Virus genome (UHGV): UHGV-0114034
Source: a virus
Reading direction: 5' to 3' (one strand)
Length of the DNA stretch: 31,989 nucleotides
Part shown: positions 1 to 20,525 of the stretch, piece after piece
How positions within the stretch are numbered: the first letter of the stretch is position 1
Layout: each line of letters opens with the position of its first letter
Program-made: the position numbers and the translations under genes
The notes under the pieces: generated by a model
Told to the model about the DNA's origin: nothing
The model's input: the letters and a program-made list of their open reading frames with translations, nothing else
The model's database searches: none

Positions 1-49
1 TCGCCGTAGCGAGTTCAGATAAAAGAAATCCCCGCGAGTGCGAGGATTG

Positions 50-334
50 TTATTCATTGCCGATATTTACCTTTATCGCGAACACCTTTACCGGTTTATC
101 GCCGAAGTGCAGATGTGTGATTGTCTTGATTTCATATCCGTCATACGGAACATCAATTCTGCGGCTGGAGTCGTCGCGCTTCGGATATCCCTTTGTGATA
201 ATCAGGCGGTCATACTTACGGTTAACGAGGCGCTTATTCCAGTAGTCATTACACAGGCGATACTCTTTCGTTTTCTCTCCGCGAATCATGGCATCGAAGT
301 ATTCACCTTTGACGGCAAGTTGCAGGTTAGCCAC
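50..334 (-). CDS. ASCH/PUA-like domain protein (hypothetical)
   Basis: 94-aa ORF; pattern KGEYFDAMIRGEKTKEYR ... HLHFGD resembles ASCH-fold proteins; last gene of leftward early operon. Assignment by recall only. Confidence 0.4.
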   Translation of the reverse strand: MANLQLAVKGEYFDAMIRGEKTKEYRLCNDYWNKRLVNRKYDRLIITKGYPKRDDSSRRIDVPYDGYEIKTITHLHFGDKPVKVFAIKVNIGNE

Positions 335-1247
335 GGTTCACCTCCTGCGGTGCTGCTGGCAGCGGCATCCAGTGGGTTGGCTTGCAGTAGCAATCAAAGC
401 CGTGTCCGTGTGCTGACCCGCCAACGTACGTTGCCATCTTGATTAATGGATCATTACTTTCCGGCGCGTCTGGACGGTACGCCAACACTTGTTCCCCTGC
501 GGAAGGCATCTGCTCACTACAGCTTATCCAACCATCCGGAGTTACCGGAGAGTTGCCAGCCTGAACAGTAGGCATATCCGGACCTTTGCGAATCGCCCTG
601 GCAAGATCGATTGGGTCGTCGTATAACCAGTCACCTGTTTGCGGATGATTGGCCTCTGCCAGTTGCGCCGACCATTCAAGGCCGTCTTTGTGACCTTGCA
701 GATAGTCCAACGGCAACTCATCACGATTACTTACGGGTTCGATTTGTTCGGAATTACCGGACAACTGCATGGTACCTTCATTGGTGAGGGTACCATCTGC
801 ACCCTGAAGCATGGCTGCCCGGCACTCATCAACAGCCTGACACAGCTTGGCGCGGTGATGTCCAGCCATAGTCCCTTTGTTCCAGTCATGCCCCATTGTC
901 ATGCCGTAAGCATGGTGGAGAAGGCGCTTGAAACACTCAGGCACAGCTACCGGCGCTGGAGGGGCGGTGTAGAGCGGCATTACCTCAATATTGAAGATAT
1001 CCCCCTCGCTTGGACACGCCTCTGCGCTACCGTAAACCCAAGGGTGAACGACTCCGTTACGCTTGTTGATTAATCTGTGCGCCCACGCCACAGGCTCCGC
1101 TTCGAGCGATGCCAGCGCGATACGCGCATTATTAATCAGGAGGCTATCAGCAGGAGATAAAACAACATGAGCGTTACCCTCCGCATCAATTTCAGAATTC
1201 GTAATTTTTCTGAACAGCTTTGCCAGTTCTCTGGTAATAGTGCTCAT
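327..1247 (-). CDS. DUF551-domain early protein (Eaa-like)
   Basis: 306-aa ORF; C-terminal motif ...CYCKPTHWMPLPAAP typical of DUF551 C-termini of lambdoid early-region proteins; N-terminal ARIALASLEA module shared with ORF 1519-1803. Confidence 0.5.
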   Translation of the reverse strand: MSTITRELAKLFRKITNSEIDAEGNAHVVLSPADSLLINNARIALASLEAEPVAWAHRLINKRNGVVHPWVYGSAEACPSEGDIFNIEVMPLYTAPPAPVAVPECFKRLLHHAYGMTMGHDWNKGTMAGHHRAKLCQAVDECRAAMLQGADGTLTNEGTMQLSGNSEQIEPVSNRDELPLDYLQGHKDGLEWSAQLAEANHPQTGDWLYDDPIDLARAIRKGPDMPTVQAGNSPVTPDGWISCSEQMPSAGEQVLAYRPDAPESNDPLIKMATYVGGSAHGHGFDCYCKPTHWMPLPAAPQEVNRG

Positions 1248-1522
1248 GGGCGAATCTCCGTCCTGCCACCAAGTAAGCGGATTGCCACTCGTTCCCGGAA
1301 GGTAAGCGGTCGATGGTGTCCGCGGGCATTAACAATTTCAGGCTTTCCATTAGGCGGATAATTGACCCTGACCGATTGACCATCTAGCGCGTGAGAAGCC
1401 TCGAGTAGTGCTGACTTTAAGTGCGCAGGGCACTCTTTCTGCACCCGCTCGCCGTCTGAAATGACACCTGCAATCCCCTGAAGCATGCTGGCTAAATTGC
1501 TGAGATAATTTTTCACATTCAC
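1244..1522 (-). CDS. hypothetical protein
   Basis: 92-aa ORF, 4-nt overlap with neighbours (operon-style coupling). Confidence 0.4.
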   Translation of the reverse strand: MNVKNYLSNLASMLQGIAGVISDGERVQKECPAHLKSALLEASHALDGQSVRVNYPPNGKPEIVNARGHHRPLTFRERVAIRLLGGRTEIRP

Positions 1523-1803
1523 TCTCCTTTACCGGTGCCATAGGCAGATAAGCACTCTTCAAATCCAGCCTGATTATCCGTTTGACCTAAACTGAAGCCA
1601 TGCTGAAGACCATGACGAAATGCGCTATCTTGCAATTTATCTGCGCTATCGAGCTTCGCTTCCAGTTCAGCGATTCGCTTCTCTGCGGCTTCCAGCGATG
1701 CCAGTGCAATTCGTGCCAGTTCCATTTGTTCGCCACGAGTAAGCCCGTTTTCAAGCGGATTTTTAATGAATAATTCGATACGTTCTTTGGTAATAGAATT
1801 CAT
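1519..1803 (-). CDS. hypothetical coiled-coil protein (Ea22-like module)
   Basis: 94-aa ORF containing LEAAEKRIAELEAKL heptad module also present in the frameshifted upstream gene. Confidence 0.45.
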   Translation of the reverse strand: MNSITKERIELFIKNPLENGLTRGEQMELARIALASLEAAEKRIAELEAKLDSADKLQDSAFRHGLQHGFSLGQTDNQAGFEECLSAYGTGKGE

Positions 1804-1804
1804 G

Positions 1805-1996
1805 CTATTTCACCTTAATCTCAACATTTCGCAGCTTTAGCTCTACTGGCAGGTCTGACTTTCCTGTTAATGCTAATGCGAGATTTTCTGGGGTAATGAG
1901 AGCAGTTATTGCTTTCCCCATTGCCAGACGAATAATTATTCGTATTTCGCGATCGTCACATGCTCCTGGTCGAACGATTGATATTTGTCCGTCCAT
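1805..1996 (-). CDS. hypothetical protein
   Basis: 63-aa ORF; start codon 1 nt after the stop of the upstream reading frame. Confidence 0.35.
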   Translation of the reverse strand: MDGQISIVRPGACDDREIRIIIRLAMGKAITALITPENLALALTGKSDLPVELKLRNVEIKVK

Positions 1997-1997
1997 C

Positions 1998-2404
1998 TCA
2001 CTCTCCTTTGATGCGAATGCCTGCGGCGCGGATTGCAGCGATGACTTCAGAAACTTTGTATGCCATTACCGTTTGGTAATCATCGTGAAAATCTGTTCGA
2101 TGAAGCATGCTGCTACGTTCCGGGAGCGATATTTCCCGCGCTTCCAGTTCTGCAATGCGCTTTTTTGCTGCTTCCAGTTCATCCAGTAATTCCAGTACGG
2201 TAGCCGGATTAGCCTTGGCAACAAAATCCCGGACTGGCTTACAATCAATCTCCGCAATGGGTTGATACGATGTGTAGCCATGCTGTCTTGTATAACTACC
2301 GTGACGAATAACAAAAAAATCACCATTTATTTTTTAGCCTGCCACTTATCTTCACCGGCTTTCTCTGCCGCTTCACGCAGTGCCTGATAGTCAATCTTGT
2401 TCAT
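1998..2404 (-). pseudogene. Ea22-like coiled-coil protein, reading frame interrupted (-1 shift) near 2327-2335
   Basis: ATG at 2404 gives MNKIDYQALREAAEKAGEDKWQAKK then TAA at 2327-2329; a start-less open frame continues from 2333 to 1998 (INGDFFVIRHG...LDELEAAKKRIAELEAR...IRIKGE). Junction lies in an A6/T-rich tract. Confidence 0.4.
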
Positions 2405-2405
2405 G

Positions 2406-2705
2406 TCACATCACCCTGAATCCGTTGCATTTACGTAAGAAATCGCAGATATAGCCCTTCATTTTTTCATGCCAATCTCGATCATTCCCATTGCACCAAC
2501 CATCAGGTGGAGTCCAGTTTTCTATCAGAGCAGCCATTTTCTTTGCTTTCGCCGGAGTAGCTGTTGCGGTATCGCAGTAATGACGAGTGTCAACCAACGC
2601 ATCCATACCATCGATATCAAGTACGCAAAACCATGTGTGATTCGGAATTCCTACAGGTGGTATTTGTTGCCCACGTCGACGTTTATCAATAAGATATACA
2701 CTCAC
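2406..2705 (-). CDS. hypothetical protein
   Basis: ORF with probable GTG start at 2705 preceded by AAAGGAGG; start overlaps the stop of the upstream small ORF (GTGA). Confidence 0.4.
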
Positions 2706-2869
2706 TGCTTGCCTCCTTTGCGCCACATCGCATTCAGATATTTGTTTTGATTTACTGACGGAAAAGAATTTCTCTTAAGCAATTCCTCTCTCGATGGCAT
2801 TGGCTTTACGCGTTGGCGAATAATCATTTCTGCCGGAAGAATGCCGGGATTGTATGCAAGTCCTCTCAT
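2702..2869 (-). CDS. small hypothetical protein (55 aa)
   Basis: ATG at 2869 preceded by GAGGAA; [55 protein letters not shown]; stop overlaps downstream start. Below the ORF-track size cutoff. Confidence 0.3.
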
Positions 2870-2885
2870 GATTAATTCCTCTTTG

Positions 2886-3200
2886 TTAATTTATTTGTAT
2901 GCCTGCTCTTTCTTCATCGAGTTTTTTTAGCTTGTATCGCATAGCTCTTACTGAATAAATTGAGCGGCAGGTTGCAATTGCTATTTCTTCTGCGGAGAAC
3001 TTACCGAAAAGTGATACTTCGGCTCTTGTCCATCGTCTTCCACGAAGTCGGCTAACAATGTCAGCGCCAATCCTTGTTGCTTTCGCCATTACTGCTTTTT
3101 CAGTCCTTTCCAGTTTTTCAGCGATAACTTCAACTGGCATTGTCGCCGCTACTTCGCGTAAGAAATCGACTTCCCATTTCTCCCATGGAGTCTTTTTCAT
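2886..3200 (-). CDS. hypothetical protein with two helix-rich repeats (possible DNA-binding)
   Basis: 104-aa ORF; two similar modules ([12 protein letters not shown]... and [14 protein letters not shown]...). Confidence 0.4.
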
Positions 3201-3211
3201 AGGCGATACCG

Positions 3212-3700
3212 TTATTTGATAAGAAGTGAAGGTTTCCCAACCTTGAGTTGAGCGCCTGGGATATTTATTCCTGCTTTTAGTTGGTGCTTGATTGCCAACT
3301 TGTCGGCTTTAATTGTCGTTTCGAACTCAACGTATTCAGGAGGAAGGGCGCTTGAGTCGATGATTTCTACAATTTCTGACGGTTTGCGGATTGTTACCTG
3401 GTGAATACCTGCTCGAATATTTTTCTTGCCAACCATTTCAAGCGATGACGCTATATATGATTTGATGCTGTCAATCTTATTTTGAATTACTGCGGCTCGC
3501 TCATTCAGTGACTTTGCCTCTTCCTTGAGGCGTTCAGCATAACCAGATTCATTTTTAATGACGGAAAGAAGTTGCTCTATTTTATCGGTAAATTCTCCTT
3601 CCATGCCTTCTATTGTGTCAGCAATCATCTCTGGTTCTAAATCTGAATCCATCAATTTTGCGTATTCATTGGCAATTTCATATAGTTTGCTCACTGGCAA
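3212..3700 (-). CDS. Gp157-family protein (coiled-coil, RecT-associated)
   Basis: 162-aa coiled-coil protein adjacent to recT, resembling Siphovirus Gp157-family proteins; by recall. Confidence 0.45.
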   Translation of the reverse strand: MPVSKLYEIANEYAKLMDSDLEPEMIADTIEGMEGEFTDKIEQLLSVIKNESGYAERLKEEAKSLNERAAVIQNKIDSIKSYIASSLEMVGKKNIRAGIHQVTIRKPSEIVEIIDSSALPPEYVEFETTIKADKLAIKHQLKAGINIPGAQLKVGKPSLLIK

Positions 3701-4589
3701 CCTCCAGTTTCGCTTTGCATTCTGCGTAAATGGCTTGTACGTTCTGCTGCAATTTCATTCCAGATGTCAGGCGATATGCTTCTGCAAAATATCGCTTCAA
3801 ATCATCCATGTTTTCAGCCTGAGCCATTTCATCACAAAGAAGTTGTGCTTTATCCGTTATTTCCTGCTGGCGTTTCCGTTCATCTTCGCGGATATCTTCC
3901 TCTGATTTGTGCGGCATAACTGGTTCAGTCCACACACCTTCTTCTTCGTTTAGTACGTGAATAGCACTATCAAGACGTGATGCCTTAGGCCAATACTTGC
4001 TTGCACGCTTTACGACCGTCTTTCGCGCCATCTCATTCCAGTGATTTACCCATGGTCCTTTATCGCTGAATGCCGCCTTGCTTGTTTTCCTTACAGCCTC
4101 AATTTCAGCCAGACTCATCTCTTCCGTTAGATAATCACCTGCTGGCGTCTTAACTGTGCAGTAAACGCCAACGATATCACCACGATCACCGAAGGCGTTG
4201 TATTTATGGGTTGGTGCTTTATCAAGCCCGTTTGACTCATAGGTATCGTTAGCATGAACAAGTTTTGCCTGACCCCATGAGATAACACCAGACTCCATTG
4301 CAATATGGAGCAATCCCATATAACTGATATCAAGGCAAACCATGCCGTCGCGCGGAACTAGATAAGCAAGTTTGCTGGCTGGGTTTAAGGTGATGCCGAT
4401 CGCCGCAACATTGATGATGGCGTTCTGTGCGCTGGTTGGATTTGCCAGTGCCGTTTTAGCCAGGTAATCATTTTTCTGGAAATACTGAATTGCAAACTGG
4501 CTTTCCTTAGCCCATGTCACCGTCTGTTCAGTCAATGCTCCGCAGAATAACTGCTCTTGCTGTTTAACGAATTCAACGATATTGCTCAT
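3678..4589 (-). CDS. recT: RecT-family single-strand annealing recombinase
   Basis: 303-aa ORF; motif KGPWVNHWNEMARKTVVKRASKYWP matches the conserved RecT core (Rac RecT ...GPWVTHWEEMAKKTAIRRLFKYLP). Confidence 0.85.
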   Translation of the reverse strand: MSNIVEFVKQQEQLFCGALTEQTVTWAKESQFAIQYFQKNDYLAKTALANPTSAQNAIINVAAIGITLNPASKLAYLVPRDGMVCLDISYMGLLHIAMESGVISWGQAKLVHANDTYESNGLDKAPTHKYNAFGDRGDIVGVYCTVKTPAGDYLTEEMSLAEIEAVRKTSKAAFSDKGPWVNHWNEMARKTVVKRASKYWPKASRLDSAIHVLNEEEGVWTEPVMPHKSEEDIREDERKRQQEITDKAQLLCDEMAQAENMDDLKRYFAEAYRLTSGMKLQQNVQAIYAECKAKLEVASEQTI

Positions 4590-4897
4590 GCTGCTTCTCC
4601 AAAAATGTGTCTGCGTTTGAATATTGCGAAGGCATATTCAGCCTTAACTCTTTCGGTTATTGCATCCCAGAACCATTCAGCGGCTTTTTCCTGATAGTTA
4701 CAGTCATCATCTTCCAGCCAGTCGATAGCGTCCTTAGTGTGTTCATCTGGTTTATATGAGCGAAGCATTTCGCTTATTGGGTCGCAACGTTTGCAGAGGC
4801 GATCAACTTCACTGTTGATTCGTTCGTAATCTTCATCAGTAAAACTTGCGATTATTTGCGATATTTCACGCTTATCATTCAGAGTCAGAATCATCAT
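4586..4897 (-). CDS. hypothetical protein
   Basis: 103-aa ORF immediately upstream of recT with 4-nt overlap. Confidence 0.45.
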   Translation of the reverse strand: MMILTLNDKREISQIIASFTDEDYERINSEVDRLCKRCDPISEMLRSYKPDEHTKDAIDWLEDDDCNYQEKAAEWFWDAITERVKAEYAFAIFKRRHIFGEAA

Positions 4898-5334
4898 CTT
4901 TCTCCTGTTCTTTGTGCTGATTGAGTATTTTTTTCATCTGACGAATGAATTCTTCGTCTGACCAGTTATCTGTAAAACTCATGGACGGCCTTGTTGTTTC
5001 AAAATATCCCAAAGCTTTTCGAGCAAGCTTTTCATTCTTGGTTGTTTAAAGTCTGCTCCGGTTAAAATATTTTTTCGTGAATGCTGTACCGATAAAATCG
5101 GGTTGAAAGGGCGAACCGATGCCGCCCCAGCAATAGCGAACTGTTGCATAGGATGCTCCTTCTGTTTTATTGCATAACGAAAACGCCTCGAGTGAAGCGT
5201 TATTGGTATGCATATAAAAAGGCCCTCACACTGGAGGGCAAAGAAGATTTCCAATAATCAGAACAAGTCGGCTCCTGTTTAGTTACGAGCGACATTGCTC
5301 CGTGTATTCACTCGTTGGAATGAATACACAGTGT

Positions 5335-5538
5335 TTATTCGCGAGCTTTGAGCATTGCGTCTGCAAACTTATATGCAGCGCTTGCTGCATAATTAACAGC
5401 TCCATCAGAATCATTATCGATAATCGATGGATTGCTAATCATTGCTTGCATAGCCTTTGCCGCGAAGTAATCACGTAATGTCGCATCACTTGCCATTTCT
5501 GGGCGTTTGATATCTGCTTCATAAAACTCGCACATCAT
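5335..5538 (-). CDS. hypothetical protein
   Basis: 67-aa ORF, 4-nt overlap with upstream gene; followed by a 9-bp-stem hairpin (5303-5329). Confidence 0.4.
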   Translation of the reverse strand: MMCEFYEADIKRPEMASDATLRDYFAAKAMQAMISNPSIIDNDSDGAVNYAASAAYKFADAMLKARE

Positions 5539-5828
5539 TCACCTCCCAGAGCCTTGCTGATTGCTGCAAGACCTTTATTAACAGCTTCATACCATTCTGG
5601 ATATGTTGTCGTTGTTCTATTTTTGGATTGCTTAAGTAATAACTGAAGTGCTTCGAGAAGGTCAGGTGCTGCCGCTATCAGTAGCGCATCCTCCCTTTCA
5701 TTTCTTGTTGCTGCTTCAATGTATGTGTCACCAATCGTCACACCATGGAACGTAGTCATCATCTCGTTGACGTTTCTAACCGTGTACTTCCATTTACCAG
5801 GCGTACCCTTAAACTCTTTCATATTCAC
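5535..5828 (-). CDS. Ead/Ea22-like family protein
   Basis: 97-aa ORF with GTPGKW near N-terminus and LLIAAAPDLLEALQLL motif, both recalled as hallmarks of Ead/Ea22-like early proteins. Confidence 0.45.
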   Translation of the reverse strand: MNMKEFKGTPGKWKYTVRNVNEMMTTFHGVTIGDTYIEAATRNEREDALLIAAAPDLLEALQLLLKQSKNRTTTTYPEWYEAVNKGLAAISKALGGE

Positions 5829-5869
5829 CTCTGTTGTTTATGCCCAAAATAAAGGCCGACTATTCGGCC

Positions 5870-6037
5870 TTAAAATCCTGAATATTCGCGAAGAGATTCG
5901 ATAATTTCCTCGCAGTCGATAAGTAGTTCGTCAGGTTCATCTTCTCGATTTTTAAGTGCCTCAATGTTCCCAGCTAACTGGCGAAGCATCATTGCTTGCC
6001 ATTCAGGGTCGAAGCTGTCTGGTATTTCAATTTCCAT
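5870..6037 (-). CDS. small acidic hypothetical protein (55 aa)
   Basis: ATG at 6037; MEIEIPDSFDPEWQAMMLRQLAGNIEALKNREDEPDELLIDCEEIIESLREYSGF; stop overlaps hairpin AGGCCGA-CTAT-TCGGCCT (5853-5870). Confidence 0.3.
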   Translation of the reverse strand: MEIEIPDSFDPEWQAMMLRQLAGNIEALKNREDEPDELLIDCEEIIESLREYSGF

Positions 6038-6099
6038 ATTTCACCTCAAATAAGTGGTTTGCTGCCAAAACAATGAACCATCAGGAAATTCCAGATAGT

Positions 6100-6327
6100 T
6101 CATAATTCACTCTTCAATACTTCCAACTTACTAATCGCCGATAGATATCCGCGCTGATAGGGCATCATCATTCCTTCGAGCTTGCCACTTCTTAACTCCT
6201 CCCTGAGCAATTGTATTGCTTGATCAATAACCTCTGCCTTAGCGTCCTTTATGGCTTGCTTTCGGGGCTTTGCTTTCTGCTTTGGCAGATTTCTCAAGCA
6301 TGATGGAATGTATGTCTGATTCATCAC
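6100..6327 (-). CDS. hypothetical basic protein
   Basis: 75-aa ORF directly downstream of N in the pL operon. Confidence 0.4.
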   Translation of the reverse strand: MMNQTYIPSCLRNLPKQKAKPRKQAIKDAKAEVIDQAIQLLREELRSGKLEGMMMPYQRGYLSAISKLEVLKSEL

Positions 6328-6600
6328 TTACCTCGCTGTCAGTTGTTTTGATTTCCGGTAGCCTGCCGCGTAAAGAGCTACGTTTGGCAGGCAAATACTT
6401 CCACTGCATTCATCTGCCTTCTTGCAGCGAAGGCTTCCGAGTGATGCTGCTTTGTCTGCTCTGACGCAACCAGAGAGCTTTAGCGCAATTTTTCGCGCCA
6501 GTGCTTCATTACTGCGTCGCTCGGCAATAAGTTCTGCTCTGCGAGCTTTGTAGCGGCTTTTTGCCGTACCTTTGGATTCTTTCCAGACAATGGTTACCAT
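6328..6600 (-). CDS. N: N antitermination protein, phage-21-type arginine-rich motif
   Basis: Start at MVTIV (RBS AAAGGAG); N-terminal GTAKSRYKARRAELIAERR matches the phage 21 N ARM peptide as I recall it; first gene downstream of pL/nutL. Confidence 0.7.
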   Translation of the reverse strand: MVTIVWKESKGTAKSRYKARRAELIAERRSNEALARKIALKLSGCVRADKAASLGSLRCKKADECSGSICLPNVALYAAGYRKSKQLTAR

Positions 6601-6710
6601 GATGGTCTCCTTTAAGTGGCTTTGGCGCATGACGCGTCGAGGTGCTTATCTTCTCGATCGCTGTCTTGCAGCTGCAATTCGCGCCATCCCCAAAACCACT
6701 CAAGTTCTGG

Positions 6711-6751
6711 TCTCAACGGTTAGGTTGAGAGTTCGTCGATGTTAAAGAGCC
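6711..6751 (-). promoter_or_regulatory. nutL: boxA-like GCTCTTTAACA and boxB hairpin TCTCAACCTAACCGTTGAGA
   Basis: On minus strand between pL and N: boxA-like element then 7-bp stem with CUAACC loop, similar to nutR boxB at 9436-9454. Confidence 0.6.
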
Positions 6752-6789
6752 TGCCAATCTGTTCCTTGTGGCGTCTCAGCGTCCTGCTG

Positions 6790-6845
6790 ATGGAAATGAT
6801 AGTCACATATTGTGATTTAATGGTCAATCACAAAATGTGTAAAAT
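6790..6845 (-). promoter_or_regulatory. OL operators and pL promoter
   Basis: Palindromes TCACAtatTGTGA (6803-6815) and TCACAaaaTGTGT (6828-6840), same family as in OR; minus-strand TTGACC-17-GACTAT. Confidence 0.55.
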
Positions 6846-7076
6846 AAAGGTGTGACACGTTATGTGTATGATTTTTTTGTGTAAATAGTTTTACCCGCGA
6901 TGGTTTTGCTTACTTAAGTCGGTGGCAACAGCAGGATGGGTGCTGAAAAGTTCGAAAAACGAGCGAATGGGGTGGTGGCGAGATGGCGGGATATGGGAGT
7001 TGTATTAAGAATTATAGTAATTTAATCAATAGTTTGGACCGGCTGGCAGGTGTTGTCCTGATAGTGATCGGCGGGC

Positions 7077-7103
7077 AATAAAAAACCCGGCGCTGAGGCC
7101 GGG
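7077..7103 (-). terminator. rho-independent terminator ending the immunity-region accessory cassette
   Basis: Minus strand: hairpin CCCGGC-CUCAGC-GCCGGG followed by UUUUUUAUU. Confidence 0.6.
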
Positions 7104-7110
7104 TTGATGA

Positions 7111-7233
7111 TTAGCGGTGTGGCCTTGAGCGATAATGCTCACACACATGTTCAAGATTTCCATGCCTTATCCGTTCATAGGCATTCACATGAACTTCTCG
7201 ATCGAATTGGTCATTCAAATTGTATGTAGACAT
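7111..7233 (-). CDS. small hypothetical His/Cys-containing protein (40 aa)
   Basis: MSTYNLNDQFDREVHVNAYERIRHGNLEHVCEHYRSRPHR; stop 8 nt before terminator hairpin; weak RBS. Confidence 0.3.
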   Translation of the reverse strand: MSTYNLNDQFDREVHVNAYERIRHGNLEHVCEHYRSRPHR

Positions 7234-7406
7234 CTGTGTTTTCTCATATTGGCGGCAGCCCTACAACCGCTTGAAAAAATGTACCAGACGCGCTAAGGTT
7301 ACATCGCAAATATTGTGTACCTTAACAAGGGCTCCTTTTGGAGGCTCTGGTTAAACAGCATCAATGTCGGACTGGGGAGTTGGACATTGTGCTGAATGCT
7401 TTTGCA

Positions 7407-7928
7407 TTATTGAGGCCGAACGTAAACCTTCAGAATTGAAGAGATGCGTTCGGCTTCTTCGTTTGTGATATCGTTAGGAATGCCTTTAATCGTTACTGTA
7501 ACCCCTGATTCAGGTCGAAGAACTACTGGAAGATCATAGGTATGAAGTGCATTAGCCTTGCCTTCGACTTTTGTTGGTTCGCCAGTCAAATCTTTTTCCT
7601 CACTGGATTCTTTGTCAATCGGAGTGTATGGGATTTCTTCACCAGACTGGAAAGCTACAAACTTTTTGATTGCACTTTCCATGCGGCTTTTATATGCAGT
7701 AATGCTGCTGTCGCTAGGCTTCGGCTCAGTTGCGTTGATGTATCGCTCGGCAAGCTCATTCACATCAAGCTGAGTAACATCACCCATTTCCTCTTCTTGG
7801 ACTACCGTTAAGAGGCGAGCGGATGAGTTTTTTAAATTTCGAGCGGTGGCCTCCTTCATTATGTTCAGCGACATAAGCTCTTCAAGGAAGTCCTTGAATG
7901 CCTGCACGCTAACGTTTGACTTTGCCAT
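7407..7928 (-). CDS. hypothetical acidic protein, immunity-region moron (rexAB-equivalent position)
   Basis: 173-aa ORF between cI and OL on the cI strand with own promoter-like element (7961-7989) and flanking terminators; no recognisable motif. Confidence 0.6.
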   Translation of the reverse strand: MAKSNVSVQAFKDFLEELMSLNIMKEATARNLKNSSARLLTVVQEEEMGDVTQLDVNELAERYINATEPKPSDSSITAYKSRMESAIKKFVAFQSGEEIPYTPIDKESSEEKDLTGEPTKVEGKANALHTYDLPVVLRPESGVTVTIKGIPNDITNEEAERISSILKVYVRPQ

Positions 7929-7960
7929 TTGCTCTCTCTCTAAGTTATTGACTCAGATCG

Positions 7961-8002
7961 AGTTTATCCAGGAATTGATTTGCATGCAAGACTCAAGTCT
8001 TG
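7961..8002 (-). promoter_or_regulatory. putative sigma70 promoter with overlapping palindromes for the accessory cassette
   Basis: Minus strand TTGCAT-17-TAAACT; palindromes CAAGACT-ca-AGTCTTG (7987-8002) and TCTTGA-n10-TCAAGA adjacent to the -35. Confidence 0.35.
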
Positions 8003-8030
8003 AGAATTTCCGTTCAAGATCCACTCTCAA

Positions 8031-8055
8031 TAAAAAAGGCCGCACCTCTGCGACC
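8031..8055 (-). terminator. rho-independent terminator downstream of cI
   Basis: Minus strand: GGUCGCA-GAGG-UGCGGCC hairpin followed by UUUUUUAUU. Confidence 0.6.
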
Positions 8056-8429
8056 TTTCATCTCCTAAATCTCTTTTCTCTTACCTAAAGAAACAGCAGG
8101 CTGGGTCAGCCCTAACAACTTCAAGTGCATCGGTCAGAGAAAGCTCCGTGCTATACAGGTGTTATTTCATATCTTTTTGCATCCAATAAATTTTCCATCT
8201 GTCCAGAGAGCTGATGCACTTGATTCTTGTTGATGGCAGGACGTTTTTTCACCTGCCTCACCCTGCCATACAGGACGCTGCTCACCGATATCTATTGTCC
8301 GGTCATTGATGTTATAGACAATATCCAGATCATTACGGATATACTCAGATGGCCTTATGCTTTCAATGAATAGATGAACTTCTTTTTGACCGCGTGATAC
8401 TCATGGCCATTAAACTCCATCTATCCTCT

Positions 8430-9077
8430 TCACCCAAACGTCTCTTCAGGCCACTGCGCCTTAACTACCTTGCCTATGATGCGGCAGCTATGGTCGCAAT
8501 CCAGGGTTCTATATGCCGGGTTTAAAGGTACCAGGTAACTAACCCCTGCATCCTTCTCATACTTCTTGAACGTTGCCTCTGAATCACCATTTGCAGAAGC
8601 CACGCAGAAATCCCCAGACTCTACCGGCTCAGCCGGATCAACGAGTATCAGCATGCCTTCCGGAAAACTTGGACGAACCCCCTGAGGCGCCGTCATTGAA
8701 TGCCCCTTCACCTCAAGCCAGAAAGCTTTTTCGCTGGCTTTTGTGGTCGTTGGGACCCATGCCTTTGCATCGCTGGCTGTGTAGCTTCCCACCTCCGAAA
8801 ATGGCCCAGCCTGCACTGAAGAAAATAACGGGTATTCATATTGGCGAAATACGGCGTCTGAATCCTCGCCAAACATTATTTTTGCCGGAGATACGCCGAG
8901 TGCCGCCCCAAGAACCAGCGCGTCATCCGCGCTAACCTTTCTTGTTCCTAACTCGTAGTTCCCCAGGCGTGAAGGCGCAGCCCAGCCGCAAAGCTTGGCC
9001 AATTGAGCCTGGCTAAGTCCTTTAGCTTCTCTAAGGGACTTGATCCTTTCCCCGATAATTTCATGCATCGTTTTCAT
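8430..9077 (-). CDS. cI: CI-type prophage repressor (HTH plus S24 LexA-like peptidase domain)
   Basis: N-terminal HTH ([22 protein letters not shown]) and C-terminal S24 autocleavage domain (KGHSM); divergent from cro across operators. Start may be the second ATG at 9068 (AAGGGA 8 nt upstream). Confidence 0.85.
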
Positions 9078-9083
9078 CCCTTA

Positions 9084-9170
9084 AATGTAACACGCAACGT
9101 GATTGAACTCTGTACACGAATTGAGGTTGACTGTTAATCACAAATTGTGTGTAATGGGTGTGTGATTAAT
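9084..9170. promoter_or_regulatory. OR operators with divergent pR (rightward) and pRM (leftward)
   Basis: TCACAaatTGTGT palindrome (9137-9149) plus TGTGTGATTAA repeat; pR candidate TTGACT(9127-9132)-17-TGTAAT. Confidence 0.55.
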
Positions 9171-9185
9171 GCTAGGGAGACCGAA

Positions 9186-9404
9186 ATGAACAAAATTGCC
9201 CAGCAGCGAAAAAAAATCGGAGTTTCGCAAGCTGTACTAGCTTCGGCAATTGGTTGGGGGCAATCCCGCATCGCCAACTATGAGCTGAATATCCGTACTC
9301 CTGGCCTTAACGATTGCCGAATGATCGTAGAAGGCCTCAGGAAGTTAGGGTGCCAATGTTCTTTGGATGATGTTTTCCCTCCATCCAGTAACAAAGCCGC
9401 CTAA
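9186..9404 (+). CDS. cro: Cro-like repressor (HTH)
   Basis: 72 aa from MNKIAQQ (RBS GGGAGA); HTH GVSQAVLASAIGWGQSRIANYE; first gene of pR operon. Confidence 0.7.
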   Translation: MNKIAQQRKKIGVSQAVLASAIGWGQSRIANYELNIRTPGLNDCRMIVEGLRKLGCQCSLDDVFPPSSNKAA

Positions 9405-9412
9405 GCAGTACC

Positions 9413-9454
9413 CGCTCTTTAACAGTCATGGCCTTTCACCTCTAACCGGGTGAG
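9413..9454 (+). promoter_or_regulatory. nutR: boxA CGCTCTTTAACA and boxB hairpin TTCACCTCTAACCGGGTGA
   Basis: boxA near-identical to lambda consensus CGCTCTTACACA; boxB stem TCACC/GGTGA with CUAACC-containing loop, as recalled for phage 21. Confidence 0.7.
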
Positions 9455-9521
9455 CAAACATCAGCGGCAAATCCATTGGGTGTGCCTCTATAACTCAATA
9501 TCAATATAGGAAAATTAACAA

Positions 9522-11912: not shown

Positions 11913-12125
11913 ATGGACACCGTTAACGGAATGTGTTCAGACGCACCGCGTGCCAAAAAATGTAAATGCGGAAAATCACCGACAATATTCGACATGGAGA
12001 GCGGGTGCCAAATCTACTGCGCTAACCACGCCGCTGTGGCGGCCGCGAATTATCGCAGTGCGGTAACGGAGTGGAATAACCTGAAATCTGTTAGAGAGGG
12101 AAGTCATGAAAAAACTGACCTTTGA
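11913..12125 (+). CDS. hypothetical Cys-rich protein (possible zinc ribbon)
   Basis: 70-aa ORF with RBS GAGGGGG; CKCGK...CQIYC cysteine pairs. Confidence 0.45.
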   Translation: MDTVNGMCSDAPRAKKCKCGKSPTIFDMESGCQIYCANHAAVAAANYRSAVTEWNNLKSVREGSHEKTDL

Positions 12126-12522
12126 AATTCGATCTCCAGCACATCAGCAAAACGCTATTCACGCAGTACAGCAAATCCTTCCAGACCCAACCAAACCAAT
12201 CGTAGTAACCATTCAGGAACGCAACCGCAGCATTCGGCAAAATGCACGCCTTCACGCGATGCTATCTGAAATAAGTAAGAAGGCTACATATCATGGAAAA
12301 GCAAGAAATATTGAGTTTTGGAAGGGGTTATTCGTTTCTGGTTGGCAGATTGCAACCAACCAGCACCCTGAGATTATATCAGGGTTAGAAGGTGAGCTAA
12401 TAAACATCAGAGAGAGTACGGCGACTCTATCTGTAAAAAAAATATCCGAAATAATGGACTACATAGAAGCATATTGTGCCATGAACTCAATTCATCTTAG
12501 CGAATGGAGGAATTATGATTGA
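12106..12522 (+). CDS. ninB: NinB (Orf-family recombination mediator)
   Basis: First ~40 aa (MKKLTFEIRSPAHQQNAIHAVQQILPDPTKPIVVTIQERNRS) match lambda NinB as recalled; C-terminal part divergent. Confidence 0.8.
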   Translation: MKKLTFEIRSPAHQQNAIHAVQQILPDPTKPIVVTIQERNRSIRQNARLHAMLSEISKKATYHGKARNIEFWKGLFVSGWQIATNQHPEIISGLEGELINIRESTATLSVKKISEIMDYIEAYCAMNSIHLSEWRNYD

Positions 12523-13117
12523 GGTTTGGGTAGATATCGAAGGAATTCCATTTTATCAGGTTAGCAATAAAGGGAATTTCAGGTCTATTACGAGGGAAAT
12601 TACAGTAACATCAACCAGACAGAGGCCATATAAGAAAATAATTAATGGCACTAGCGTAAAACCATTCAAGTGCAAGTCGACAGGATATCTTCAAATAAAG
12701 GTATACGGTAAGAAATACAGCGCACACAGGATAGTTGCGAAAGCATTCTGTACAGGGTTCTGTGATGGCTTGGTAGTTAATCACAAAAATGGGCAAAGAG
12801 ATGACAATAGGGCTGAAAACCTTGAATGGGTATCACATTCTGAAAACTCAAAGCACGGATATAAACAAAATGGAAGAATACCTATATCGCTAGGTAAATT
12901 TAGTGGTGATCATCCTGCCAGTAAAGCTGTTATTTCTACTGACATGAAAACTGGGGAGGAGGTTTATTATGAAGCAGCTATGGATGCTGTCAGAGAAGGA
13001 TTTGATAGTTCGTCAATTAGTCGTTGCTGTAATGGCGAAAGCTCATATCACAAAGGAAGATTCTGGCGATTTGCAAATGAAACAATGAAAGCGCGATGGG
13101 GAGACAGGGCGGCATGA
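12515..13117 (+). mobile_element. HNH homing endonuclease gene (NUMOD4 plus HNH_3-like) inserted at ninB 3' end
   Basis: 200-aa ORF: WVDIEGIPFYQVSNKGNFRS and VVNHKNGQRDDNRAENLEWVSHSEN motifs; last residues KARWGDRAA match the lambda NinB C-terminus. Confidence 0.7.
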
Positions 13118-13290
13118 GACGACAGCGACGAAGTTTCACCGACATCATCTGCGAAAACTGCAATTACCTTCCAACGAAACGCTCCAGAAATAAATCCAAG
13201 CCAATCCCAAAAGAATCTGACGTAAAAACCTTCAATTACACGGCTCACCTGTGGGATATCCGGTGGCTAAGACATCGTGCGAGGAAATGA
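13114..13290 (+). CDS. NinE-like (or NinD-like) small nin-region protein
   Basis: 58 aa [27 protein letters not shown]...; overlaps HNH stop (ATGA). NinE versus NinD assignment is by recall and uncertain. Confidence 0.55.
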
Positions 13291-13292
13291 CA

Positions 13293-13646
13293 ATGGATTA
13301 TTCACAGTTAAGTGATTTTGAAATTAACAGAATGGTAGGAGACATAATTTTTAAAGGCCTTTGGGCATGTAAACCGGAAACATCAGGGAATAACACCAAC
13401 AAATGGTATTACGGAAATGCTGATACAACTTTTGAGCCATTAAACCCTTTGCCTGACTACTGCAATGATCCTAGCGCCTCATGGCCGATTATTGAGAAGT
13501 ACAGGATTAGCATCATCAATCTCGATGAAGACGAGTGGGGTGCACGTGGTGTGGCCGACTGTAAATCTAAGCGAGCTATACATGAAAATTCCCTCCGCGC
13601 CGCCATGATTGTCTTTCTCATGATGCAGGACGCCAATAATGCTTAG
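13293..13646 (+). CDS. NinX-like (DUF2591-like) protein
   Basis: 117 aa from MDYSQLSDFEINR; family call by recall only. Confidence 0.4.
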   Translation: MDYSQLSDFEINRMVGDIIFKGLWACKPETSGNNTNKWYYGNADTTFEPLNPLPDYCNDPSASWPIIEKYRISIINLDEDEWGARGVADCKSKRAIHENSLRAAMIVFLMMQDANNA

Positions 13647-13815: not shown

Positions 13816-14020
13816 TTACCTGAAATGGTATCTCTGCCACCGCTGGTTAATTAAGTTTGCTGTAAAAGACTGGATGACAGCGGATGCCAACAAGCTTAAG
13901 CAAAGAAAGGACTATTACTACGCCAGAATGAAGGAAAACTACTGCTCAATTCGCACTCGCATATTTATTAAAAAAGACCTTCAGTCAATTCTTCAATTGC
14001 GAGGGAAGGTAAATGGCTAA
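13808..14020 (+). CDS. hypothetical protein
   Basis: 70-aa ORF with overlapping start/stop coupling in the nin operon. Confidence 0.4.
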   Translation: MSDYLKWYLCHRWLIKFAVKDWMTADANKLKQRKDYYYARMKENYCSIRTRIFIKKDLQSILQLRGKVNG

Positions 14021-14303
14021 CCTACGCAAAGAAGCGCGCGGCAGAGAATGCCAGGTTCGTATTTACGGCATATGCAATGGCAATCCTGAAACTACAGTTC
14101 TGGCACATTACCGGATGGCTGGAATTTGCGGAACTGGAATGAAGCCTGACGACCTGATCGGTGCATGGGCTTGTAGTGACTGCCACGCGGAGATCGACCG
14201 ACGCACCCATAATCTCGACAACAAAGACGCCAGACTTTACCACCTCGAAGGCGTAATCAGGACGCAGGCGATACTGCTGAAGGAGGGGAAGATTAAGCCA
14301 TGA
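14013..14303 (+). CDS. YbcO-like (DUF1364) putative zinc-dependent nuclease
   Basis: 96 aa MANLRKEARGRECQVRIYGICNGNPETTVLAH...; sits directly upstream of rusA as in DLP12-type nin regions. Confidence 0.55.
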   Translation: MANLRKEARGRECQVRIYGICNGNPETTVLAHYRMAGICGTGMKPDDLIGAWACSDCHAEIDRRTHNLDNKDARLYHLEGVIRTQAILLKEGKIKP

Positions 14304-14662
14304 ACGAATATCAGTTTGTGCTTCCATACCCGCCGTCGGTGAACACCTACTGGCGAAGACGGGGAAGCCAATACTACATCAGCGATAAAGGCCAGAAATA
14401 CCGAAAAGACGTTCAGCAAATCATCCGCCAACTCAAGTTAGACATTTTCACCAAATCACGACTCCGCATCAAAGTCATCGCAGACGTTCCAGACTCCCGC
14501 CGCCGCGACCTCGATAACATCCTGAAAGGTTTACTCGATTCCCTTATCCACGCCGGATTTGCGGAAGACGACGAGCAATTCGATGACATTCGCGTAATTC
14601 GTGGTGTGAAAGTACCAGGCGGACGGCTTGGAATAAAAATCACCGAACTGGAGAACGCATGA
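14300..14662 (+). CDS. rusA: RusA Holliday-junction resolvase
   Basis: 120 aa; RRRDLDNILKGLLDSLIHAGF and GGRLGIKITE motifs parallel E. coli RusA. Confidence 0.85.
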   Translation: MNEYQFVLPYPPSVNTYWRRRGSQYYISDKGQKYRKDVQQIIRQLKLDIFTKSRLRIKVIADVPDSRRRDLDNILKGLLDSLIHAGFAEDDEQFDDIRVIRGVKVPGGRLGIKITELENA

Positions 14663-17316: not shown

Positions 17317-17767
17317 CCATTCCAAAGCACATCTACGGGTGGGCTTGATAATGAAACCGTGATTTACACCCCACAATCCGGGTATGTAAAAGATAGTTCA
17401 GGCGAGAACAGATTTAACTAAATCTGTGCACCACCAGTTACGGCAGTACCACGAAGCAACCCAAGCCAGTAAGTGGGGAAATAACACTGGCAGCCACTGA
17501 AAGATGAACCTCCTGCCTTATGGCAAAAAAGATTCTTTGTGGTGGCGGACTGATGGAAAGACATCGGTTATTGCAGAGGCCATTCAATGAGTGGTCTCGA
17601 CAATGGCTTATACCCTGCACGGGATAACTTAACTGATATCCATTTTAACGGATAAATGGAGCCAACAATGGCAGAGATTATTCCCATGACTGAAGAACAG
17701 AAATTCCAGTTAGAGAATTACAAACTGGTCATGAACCAGAACGCCGTCGGGCGTGGAGGTTAGCCTG

Positions 17768-18118
17768 ATGCCTGCGTTAATACCGAGAGCATGCCGCAAG
17801 CGTGGCTGCCCTGGCACAACCACTGACCGCTCAGGCTATTGTGATAAACACCGCAATGAAGGCTGGCAACAGCATCAACGAGGTCAGAGCCGACAGCAAC
17901 GGGGATATGGTAGCAAATGGGATGTTCTAAGAGCCACCGTGCTTACTCGGGACAAACATTTGTGCCAGAACTGCAAGCGCAACAATCTGATCTCTCCCGC
18001 AAAGACCGTTGACCACATCATCGCTAAGGCCAATGGTGGCACGGACGACATGAGCAACCTCGAATCTCTTTGCTGGCCCTGTCATAGGTCGAAGACTGGC
18101 CGCGAACGGTTCAAATGA
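17768..18118 (+). CDS. HNH endonuclease (terminase-associated)
   Basis: Start at MPALIP (RBS GGAGG); HNH motif CQNCKRNN...DHIIAKANGGTDDMSNLESLCWPCH; upstream of terS as in HK97-like cos phages. Confidence 0.8.
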   Translation: MPALIPRACRKRGCPGTTTDRSGYCDKHRNEGWQQHQRGQSRQQRGYGSKWDVLRATVLTRDKHLCQNCKRNNLISPAKTVDHIIAKANGGTDDMSNLESLCWPCHRSKTGRERFK

Positions 18119-18789: not shown

Positions 18790-20525
18790 TGGCTAAGGTT
18801 GCAGAAGGCATCCGCTACGCCGAGAGGGTGGTGGCGGGGGAAATTATTGCCTGTGAGTATGTGCGCCTTGCCTGTCAGCGTTTCCTTGACGATCTGGCAC
18901 ACGGCGAAGAGCGCGGTATTTTCTTCAGTGAGCCGCGCGCACAGCACATTCTGAATTTCTATAATTTTGTGCCTCACGTAAAAGGCGCGCTGGCAGGACA
19001 GCCTATTGAGCTGATGGACTGGCACGTTTTCATCCTGATTAATATTTTTGGTTTCGTTATCCCGCTGGTTAACGAAGAAACGGGAGAAACCGTCCTGCGT
19101 AATGACGGCAGCGGTCGTCCAGTAATGGTTAGGCGCTTTCGTACAGCAGATGTTGAGGTAGCCCGTAAAAATGCCAAATCAACGCTTTGCTCCGGCGTGG
19201 GGCTTTATATGGCTGGCGCCGACGGCGAGGGCGGTGCTGAGGTTTATTCCGCTGCAACCACCCGTGACCAGGCTCGAATTGTTTTTGAAGACGCGAAGAA
19301 TATGGTCAAAAAGGCGAAAGCCACGCTTGGGCGGATCTTCGAATTCAACAAGCTCGCTATCTACCAGGAGCAAACGGCCTCCAAGTTCGAGCCATTATCA
19401 TCAGATGCGAACAACCTCGATGGTCTGAACATCCACTGCGCTATCGTAGACGAGCTGCATGCTCACAAAACCCGTGACGTCTGGGACGTTCTGGAGACGG
19501 CAACCGGTGCGCGTCTGCAATCGCTGCTTTTCGGTATCACCACCGCCGGTTTCAACAAAGAAGGCATCTGCTACGAATTGCGTGATTACGCCATCAAGGT
19601 GCTGCGTGGGCTGGTAAAAGACGATACGTTTTTTGCCATTATCTACACCTTAGATGAAGGTGACGATCCATTTGATGAAAAAGTCTGGCAGAAGGCGAAT
19701 CCGGGGCTGGGTATCTGTAAGCGCTGGGATGACCTGCGCCGCCTGGCTAAAAAGGCGAAAGAGCAAGTTTCGGCCAGAATTAACTTTTTCACCAAGCACA
19801 TGAATATCTGGGTTACCGCTGAGTCAGCCTGGATGGACATGATGAAATGGGAGAAATGCGAGTTTATCGCCCCGCAGCACGAACTTAAAACCTATCCCTC
19901 CTGGGTGGGCGTTGACCTGTCAAACAAAATTGATATCTGTGCGGCCGCTAAAGTCTGGCGGGCGCCAGATGGCCACGTTCATGCGGATTTCAAATTCTGG
20001 CTACCGGAAGGACGCCTTGAGAAATGTTCACGCCAGATGGCAGAGCTCTATCGTAAGTGGGCCGGGATGGACAAGCTGATCCTTACCGACGGTGATGTAA
20101 TCGACCATGCTCAGATTAAGGAAGAGCTACAGCTGTGGGTTGCTGGCGAGAGCATGAAAGAAATTGGCTTCGACCCGTGGAGTGCGACGCAGTTCAGCCT
20201 TGCGCTGGCAGAAGAAGGGTTGCCGCTGGTGGAAGTGCCGCAGACGGTTCGCAATTTCTCTGAGGCGATGAAAGAGGTCGAAGCGCTGGTATACGGTGGC
20301 CGCTTCCATCACAGCGATCACCCGGTGATGAACTGGATGATGTCCAACGTAACCGTCAAACCTGACCGGAACGAGAACATTTTCCCGAATAAGTCCACAC
20401 CAGAGGCCAAAATTGATGGCCCTGCGGCCTTGTTCACAGCAATGAGCCGCGTTCTGGTTAACGGTGGCAACGACCAGCAGGATCTCTCCGGATTCTTCAA
20501 TAATCCCATCATGGTAGGTTTCTGA
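18789..20525 (+). CDS. terminase large subunit (HK97 gp2-like)
   Basis: 578-aa ORF with ATPase and nuclease regions in the position expected for TerL. Confidence 0.85.
   Translation: MAKVAEGIRYAERVVAGEIIACEYVRLACQRFLDDLAHGEERGIFFSEPRAQHILNFYNFVPHVKGALAGQPIELMDWHVFILINIFGFVIPLVNEETGETVLRNDGSGRPVMVRRFRTADVEVARKNAKSTLCSGVGLYMAGADGEGGAEVYSAATTRDQARIVFEDAKNMVKKAKATLGRIFEFNKLAIYQEQTASKFEPLSSDANNLDGLNIHCAIVDELHAHKTRDVWDVLETATGARLQSLLFGITTAGFNKEGICYELRDYAIKVLRGLVKDDTFFAIIYTLDEGDDPFDEKVWQKANPGLGICKRWDDLRRLAKKAKEQVSARINFFTKHMNIWVTAESAWMDMMKWEKCEFIAPQHELKTYPSWVGVDLSNKIDICAAAKVWRAPDGHVHADFKFWLPEGRLEKCSRQMAELYRKWAGMDKLILTDGDVIDHAQIKEELQLWVAGESMKEIGFDPWSATQFSLALAEEGLPLVEVPQTVRNFSEAMKEVEALVYGGRFHHSDHPVMNWMMSNVTVKPDRNENIFPNKSTPEAKIDGPAALFTAMSRVLVNGGNDQQDLSGFFNNPIMVGF

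Follow-up and report, generated by a model that had tools for sequence, protein, structure and literature searches.

A RecT-Gp157 recombination cassette of the HK140/mEpX1 type, with no encoded partner exonuclease, in the lambdoid phage genome UHGV-0114034

Described modules and the locus under study

For 246 lambdoid phages of enterobacteria, Zheng, Casjens, Davidson, Amundsen and Smith (Genome Res 2025; PMC12315714) classified the recombination (Rec) modules. There, phage HK140 is characterized by a single-strand annealing protein (SAP, annealase) of type 4 and a MuGam anti-RecBCD protein, with neither a phage nuclease nor a phage single-stranded DNA (ssDNA)-binding protein (SSB). A nuclease gene is missing from 84 of the 246 modules; those of P22 and HK620 encode none. 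RefSeq entries for HK140 and mEpX1 name the annealase "RecT-like ssDNA annealing protein" and its companion "Mu Gam-like end protection". Described here is a locus of this kind in the window, that is, the whole analysed stretch of 31,989 nucleotides of the viral genome UHGV-0114034, in which recT adjoins a gene of the Gp157 family.

The cassette p103-RecT-Gp157(-D5-like-DUF2737) of the window is a lambdoid Rec module of the HK140/mEpX1 type, already described and common. Orthologues are 97-99% identical in protein sequence to those of HK140, stand in the same order and include no nuclease or SSB match. The p103 and D5-like flanks are likewise shared with HK140 and mEpX1; nothing essential differs. 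The rest of the window genome is mosaic, with mEp235-like late genes. With a probability of about 0.72, the locus is a module of RecT and a Gp157 end protector that is devoid of an exonuclease by design and is transcribed from pL under N antitermination.

Lambda Red and Rac RecET (SynExo/EATR) share with the window an annealase of the Rad52 superfamily whose C-terminal domain is separate, a translationally coupled partner gene and a place in the pL operon. They differ from it in that the window has no exonuclease, its putative partner is Gp157, and its annealase ends in a C-terminal domain not related to the lambda Beta type. The Erf-Abc1-Abc2-Arf module of P22, also lambdoid, likewise combines an annealase with an activity against RecBCD, lacks a nuclease and has its annealase surrounded by small accessory genes. 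P22 Abc2 binds RecC and hijacks RecBCD; the corresponding role in the window would fall to the Mu Gam-like Gp157. The window phage appears to be a cos/HNH-terminase packager (HK97-type). If so, recombination would not be needed to circularise incoming DNA, unlike in P22.

Description of the cassette

4586-4897, minus strand: p103, 103 aa, isoelectric point (pI) 4.65, charge -9; phrog_3486 (unknown function), E = 3.7e-59.
3678-4589, minus strand: recT, 303 aa; PF03837, E = 2.7e-32 (residues 31-217); phrog_148, E = 1.7e-92.
3212-3694, minus strand: Gp157-family gene, 160 aa; PF05565, E = 2.4e-37 (profile positions 1-162 of 162); phrog_253 ("Mu Gam-like end protection"), E = 5e-54.
2886-3200, minus strand: D5-like protein, 104 aa, pI 9.9, two helix-turn-helix-like repeats; phrog_323 ("transcriptional regulator, D5-like"), E = 2.2e-20.
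2702-2869, minus strand: DUF2737 small protein; PF10930, E = 8.8e-32; last conserved gene of the five-gene block.

By its PF03837 profile match over the annealase core, the recT product is assigned to the RecT family of single-strand annealing proteins. Identity to RecT of HK140 and mEpX1 is 99% at the amino acid level; the match to the solved Listeria RecT (PDB 7UB2) is weak (E = 0.0046). The protein consists of a core (aa 1 to about 235) and a C-terminal helical domain (aa about 236-303; window positions 3681-3884). The end of the p103 gene overlaps the recT start by ATGA, and the GTG start of Gp157 falls within recT, 17 nt before its end; p103, recT and gp157 are therefore translationally coupled. 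Transcription of the cassette is shared as well. GTG at 3694 is most likely the start of Gp157, rather than TTG at 3700, because a GGAGG Shine-Dalgarno sequence is present upstream, within the last recT codons, and homologues are 160 aa long. An open reading frame (ORF) of 115 aa at 3558-3905 (plus strand), antisense within recT, is presumed spurious.

An IMG/VR scan yielded 404 loci with close (near-identical) relatives of the window Gp157, and 80 of them were examined. RecT core, tail and Gp157 are present in all 80, with identical spacing between tail and Gp157; the D5-like gene is present in 79, DUF2737 in 76 and p103 in 75 (contig ends may cut the others). No homologue of YqaJ, RecE-like nuclease or GamL was detected within 4 kb in any of the 80 loci (tblastn; queries P13374 YqaJ and SEN22 RecE-like). 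Several carriers were deposited as isolated phages. The five genes form a stable cassette and not a decayed remnant.

In the Salmonella phage SEN22 (locus L092, 2672-4684), p103 and the D5-like gene flank a RecE-like PD-(D/E)XK nuclease (DUF3799, E = 3.1e-27) and a 189-aa protein instead of RecT and Gp157. Nuclease-bearing and nuclease-free cassettes are interchangeable at the p103/D5-like site. The 189-aa protein has no Pfam match and could be an unrecognised annealase.

Some relatives carry an HNH_3 endonuclease gene precisely at the junction of the annealase gene with gp157 (locus L003, 11224-11691; locus L006, 3647-4111; phage Louie). A homologous HNH gene is located upstream of p103 instead in 4 of the 80 IMG/VR loci. 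The insert looks like a mobile homing element targeting the annealase-gp157 junction.

Absence of a partner exonuclease

On the minus strand, recT and the Gp157 gene are the only ORFs above 110 aa between N and the DUF551 gene, as the preliminary description had stated; the remaining ones are at most about 106 aa long. The antisense ORF within recT is the sole other ORF above this length in the region. About 20 minus-strand ORFs (50-7928), the small ones included, were searched with the hidden Markov model (HMM) libraries of Pfam, PHROGs, NCBIfam and PADLOC, a check that the preliminary description had proposed. Zero nuclease-family matches were obtained, in agreement with its claim that no partner exonuclease is encoded. 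No operon ORF corresponds to the YqaJ/lambda Exo or RecE/DUF3799 protein that stands beside the annealase in SynExo/EATR systems, and none matches an SSB family in Pfam or PHROGs.

Nuclease genes are encoded in the right operon:

12515-13117, plus strand: homing endonuclease, NUMOD4 + HNH_3 + I-HmuI-like; between ninB and ninX.
14013-14303, plus strand: YbcO "putative nuclease"; PF07102, E = 2.3e-43; directly upstream of rusA.
14300-14662: RusA.
17753-18118: terminase-associated HNH.

None of these (homing HNH, YbcO, RusA, terminase HNH) is a resection exonuclease. On its left side the window stops at the ASCH-like ORF 50-334, still within the early-left operon, which leaves room for a partner exonuclease just beyond it; this is judged extremely improbable.

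The absence of the exonuclease is real and expected, and is not an anomaly. RecT had been said to pair normally with a RecE or YqaJ-type nuclease; with 84 of 246 lambdoid Rec modules lacking a nuclease, and P22 and HK620 as the classic cases, this does not hold. For annotation this settles a false alarm: among lambdoid phages, a RecT that has neither RecE nor YqaJ beside it is nothing unusual. Reliance on host functions, also put forward in the preliminary description, is likewise inferred for such modules in the literature (PMC12315714).

The other option raised there, a nuclease among the small proteins (4586-4897 or 2406-2705 were named), found no backing: the former matches only phrog_3486, the latter, as ORF 2406-2726, belongs to DUF7739, and neither has a nuclease signature. 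More broadly, a novel unrecognised exonuclease serving RecT might be sought in p103, in 2406-2726, in 5535-5828 or in others, as several operon ORFs carry no assigned function, and translation of p103, which 75 of 80 loci contain, is coupled to that of recT. Such an enzyme is nevertheless highly improbable. The small operon proteins match no nuclease family in the four HMM libraries, and RecT-Gp157 occurs without p103 in HK639, KO-TP1 and phiA005. SEN22 has the same p103 gene ahead of a genuine RecE-like PD-(D/E)XK nuclease, so p103 is no substitute for one.

Small and acidic, p103 resembles GamL rather than a nuclease. It has no match in Pfam, NCBIfam or PADLOC, and only 27 homologues, all enterobacterial. 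Its slot is that of GamL (anti-RecBCD) in HK639, KO-TP1 and P13374, and that of arf in P22. GamL (locus L007, 2990-3274; locus L005, 3203-3484) is similar in size, in charge (pI about 4.6) and in its place directly upstream of recT. Homology of p103 to GamL was considered and dropped (hhalign E = 0.14, not significant), and only the analogy of position, size and charge is left. By this analogy p103 might be a small acidic anti-nuclease protein.

Affinity of Gp157 to Mu Gam

The presence of a Gp157-like gene, noted in the preliminary description, was confirmed; overlooked in that reading was Gp157 as the likely functional partner of RecT. The window protein is a member of the Siphovirus Gp157 family (PF05565), the match spanning the full profile, and is 94-97% identical to its mEpX1 and HK140 counterparts. 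The family is large, with 12,821 clusters at E <= 0.001 in an exhaustive search. It is labelled Mu Gam-like end protection or anti-RecBCD by PHROGs, RefSeq and Zheng et al. (2025). In Firmicutes phages, Mu gam homologues and sipho_gp157 hold the same position beside erf and sak4, and analogous functions have been proposed (Steczkiewicz et al. 2021, PMC8093625).

Gp157 and Mu Gam are comparable in size (160 and 174 aa). In both, a compact C-terminal domain comes after a long N-terminal helix, and a phrog_323 gene is a neighbour. Phage Mu Gam is a Ku-like DNA-end-binding protein. It differs from Gp157 in its Pfam and PHROG families (phrog_491, not phrog_253), and no annealase adjoins it in Mu. 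A profile of 144 Gp157 sequences aligned colinearly with Mu Gam (residues 81-153 versus 80-159) at hhalign E = 7.9e-4, with a probability of only 25%. PF07352, the Mu Gam profile, was matched by 17 of 145 diverse Gp157 members (best E = 5.3e-6), which made it the family most often hit apart from their own. Reciprocal HMM searches, whose E-values refer to small directed databases, gave a colinear alignment of about 100 residues that takes in the C-terminal domain in full and the long helix from its midpoint on. The Mu Gam profile is shallow, the homologues retrieved for it all being close, with 72% identity or more. Because the profile comparisons are colinear and some family members match PF07352, Gp157 is read as a remote, superfamily-level homologue of Mu Gam on the strength of sequence profiles. 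The name "Gp157" is best read as denoting a Mu-Gam-like member of the Rec module. The protein is presumed to be a DNA-end protector or anti-RecBCD factor.

An AlphaFold2 (AF2) model of Gp157 built on a deep alignment has a predicted local distance difference test score (pLDDT) of 95.9 and comprises two helices, one short and one of 68 residues, and a compact C-terminal domain. PD-(D/E)XK or RecB-like matches in BFVD were weak and came from a shallow AF2 model of 34 sequences (pLDDT 78; ranks 11, 36, 44 and 47); they disappeared with the model of pLDDT 95.9 and are regarded as artefacts. The Gp157 sequence gave nothing significant against PDB chains. Near-invariant among the 145 diverse members are L4, K38, Y80, P118, K132, G142 and G147; no D, E or H is conserved. 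With no acidic or histidine residue conserved, Gp157 itself is unlikely to be a nuclease.

The D5-like protein encoded at 2886-3200 is related to Mu gp9 (BLASTP E = 5e-5). Mu gp9 belongs to phrog_323 (E = 5.2e-29) and is encoded directly upstream of Mu gam (Mu 5482-5781 and 5801-6325, respectively). The occurrence of a phrog_323 gene beside a Gam-like gene in two unrelated phage types suggests a functional link between them.

C-terminal domain of RecT

The last 55-68 or so residues of RecT form a distinct domain with the motif LC[DE]xM..A..M.ELK..F..A[YF][KR][ML]T.G..LQ[QK]NVQ.[IV]Y (about 55 residues). The domain is carried on the RecT cores of the window, HK639, KO-TP1, PA-1, phiA005 and 15G, and on the Erf core of PdC23. 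The Gp157 gene is next in every case, whether the core is RecT or Erf. On the same RecT core (57.7% identity, residues 1-275), the Stx phage P13374 carries another C-terminal domain, and YqaJ exonuclease and SSB follow. The P13374-type domain is 56-58% identical to that of lambda Beta. The lambda-Beta-type domain was found in 277 phage records; the adjacent gene, where annotated, is usually labelled exonuclease.

In lambda Beta the C-terminal domain binds lambda Exo (crystal structure 6M9K) and also host SSB (review PMC11611040). By analogy with the docking of Exo, the RecT C-terminal domain of the window probably docks Gp157 and/or host SSB. It is tentatively proposed, at somewhat less than even odds, that the annealase C-terminal domain is a portable partner code, here specifying Gp157. 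The tail-coding DNA physically adjoins gp157, and simple linkage could explain why the two travel together. Shuffling of interaction domains is mentioned as likely, though not analysed, by Zheng et al. (PMC12315714); the correlation between annealase C-terminal domain and partner gene may be the sole new element here. If the domain docks Gp157, the end-binding protein and the annealase would constitute a distinct two-component recombinase, in which a Ku/Gam-like protein would replace the exonuclease and pass DNA ends to host resection.

The same association admits another role for Gp157, that of an annealase accessory which loads RecT on SSB-coated ssDNA, or which recruits or reprograms RecBCD or RecJ as P22 Abc2 does for Erf. 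Gp157 is always directly downstream of an annealase with the one specific C-terminal domain, on a RecT or an Erf core, and its homology to Mu Gam is remote. Moreover, HK639 and KO-TP1 encode GamL plus Gp157, which would look redundant if both just blocked RecBCD. An accessory role in place of end protection is considered unlikely all the same: the colinear profile homology to Mu Gam spans the whole C-terminal domain, architecture and length are similar, and docking and end binding by Gp157 are mutually compatible.

Proposed function

For the RecT and Gp157 end-protector module, the following course is envisaged. Gp157 would be made upon N-dependent read-through and would bind the ends of double-stranded DNA in the manner of Mu Gam and Ku, keeping RecBCD off phage ends and rolling-circle tails. 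RecT would anneal ssDNA provided by replication forks or by host helicase/nuclease action such as RecQ/RecJ. Loading and resolution would be supplied by NinB/Orf (12106-12522) and RusA (14300-14662). Docked by RecT, Gp157 would fill the partner slot that Exo holds for Beta in lambda.

Several points weigh against this proposal. The window Gp157 does not match PF07352 even at E <= 10. A literature search found no experimental paper on the Gp157 family showing end binding or RecBCD inhibition. A strict end-blocker would hinder host resection too. In lambda, deletion of exo abolishes Red recombination (PMC3945230); since Red fails without Exo, the source of ssDNA in the present module is a real and already recognised question. 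Answers on this source and on end binding or docking by Gp157 would guide the choice of annealase and partner for recombineering, and would clarify how phages handle RecBCD.

One Chi site, GCTGGTGG, is located at 20225-20232 (plus strand) in 32 kb, the chance expectation being 0.93. Phages whose Rec module includes a RecBCD inhibitor have few Chi sites, and the Chi-rich class lacks the module, according to a published comparison. The single site of the window, a count equal to chance, fits the class with a Rec module.

Genome setting and minor observations

Mosaic in make-up, the window represents a lambdoid (HK97-like) phage or prophage. The region of the recT module is 97-98% identical in DNA sequence to mEpX1, HK140, Gally, Kapi1 and PDP110P1. 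The right-hand 23 kb, including the late genes, is 99% identical to phage mEp235 and contains O, a DnaC-like loader, NinB, RusA, Q, lysis genes, HNH and terminase, and head and tail genes. The early-left operon extends leftward on the minus strand from N to the start of the window. Further features of the genome are as follows.

8430-9077, minus strand: cI-like repressor.
6328-6630, minus strand: N; PF25694 N_peptide, E = 2.1e-17.
5852-5871, 5222-5239 and 5182-5201: terminator-like hairpins downstream of N (terminator scan).
4979-5149, minus strand: cIII-like small protein, 56 aa from an internal ATG; translation begins MQQFAIAGA; the mEpX1 counterpart gp36 is annotated cIII.
2406-2726, minus strand: DUF7739 ORF.
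327-1247: DUF551 gene.
50-334: ASCH-like ORF; the left end of the window falls inside the early-left operon.
12106-12522: ninB/Orf, right operon.
13251-13646: ninX, nin region.

With N, transcription would read past the three terminator-like hairpins. The cIII-like gene is located upstream of the Rec cassette. No RNA family was found by an Rfam scan of positions 1-9500. At the site of lambda rexAB or sieB, between N and the repressor gene, the window carries an ORF of 173 aa (7407-7928, minus strand) that matches nothing in Pfam or PADLOC. A strong terminator-like hairpin follows it at 7084-7105 (minus strand), and the ORF may be an exclusion or defence gene expressed by the prophage.

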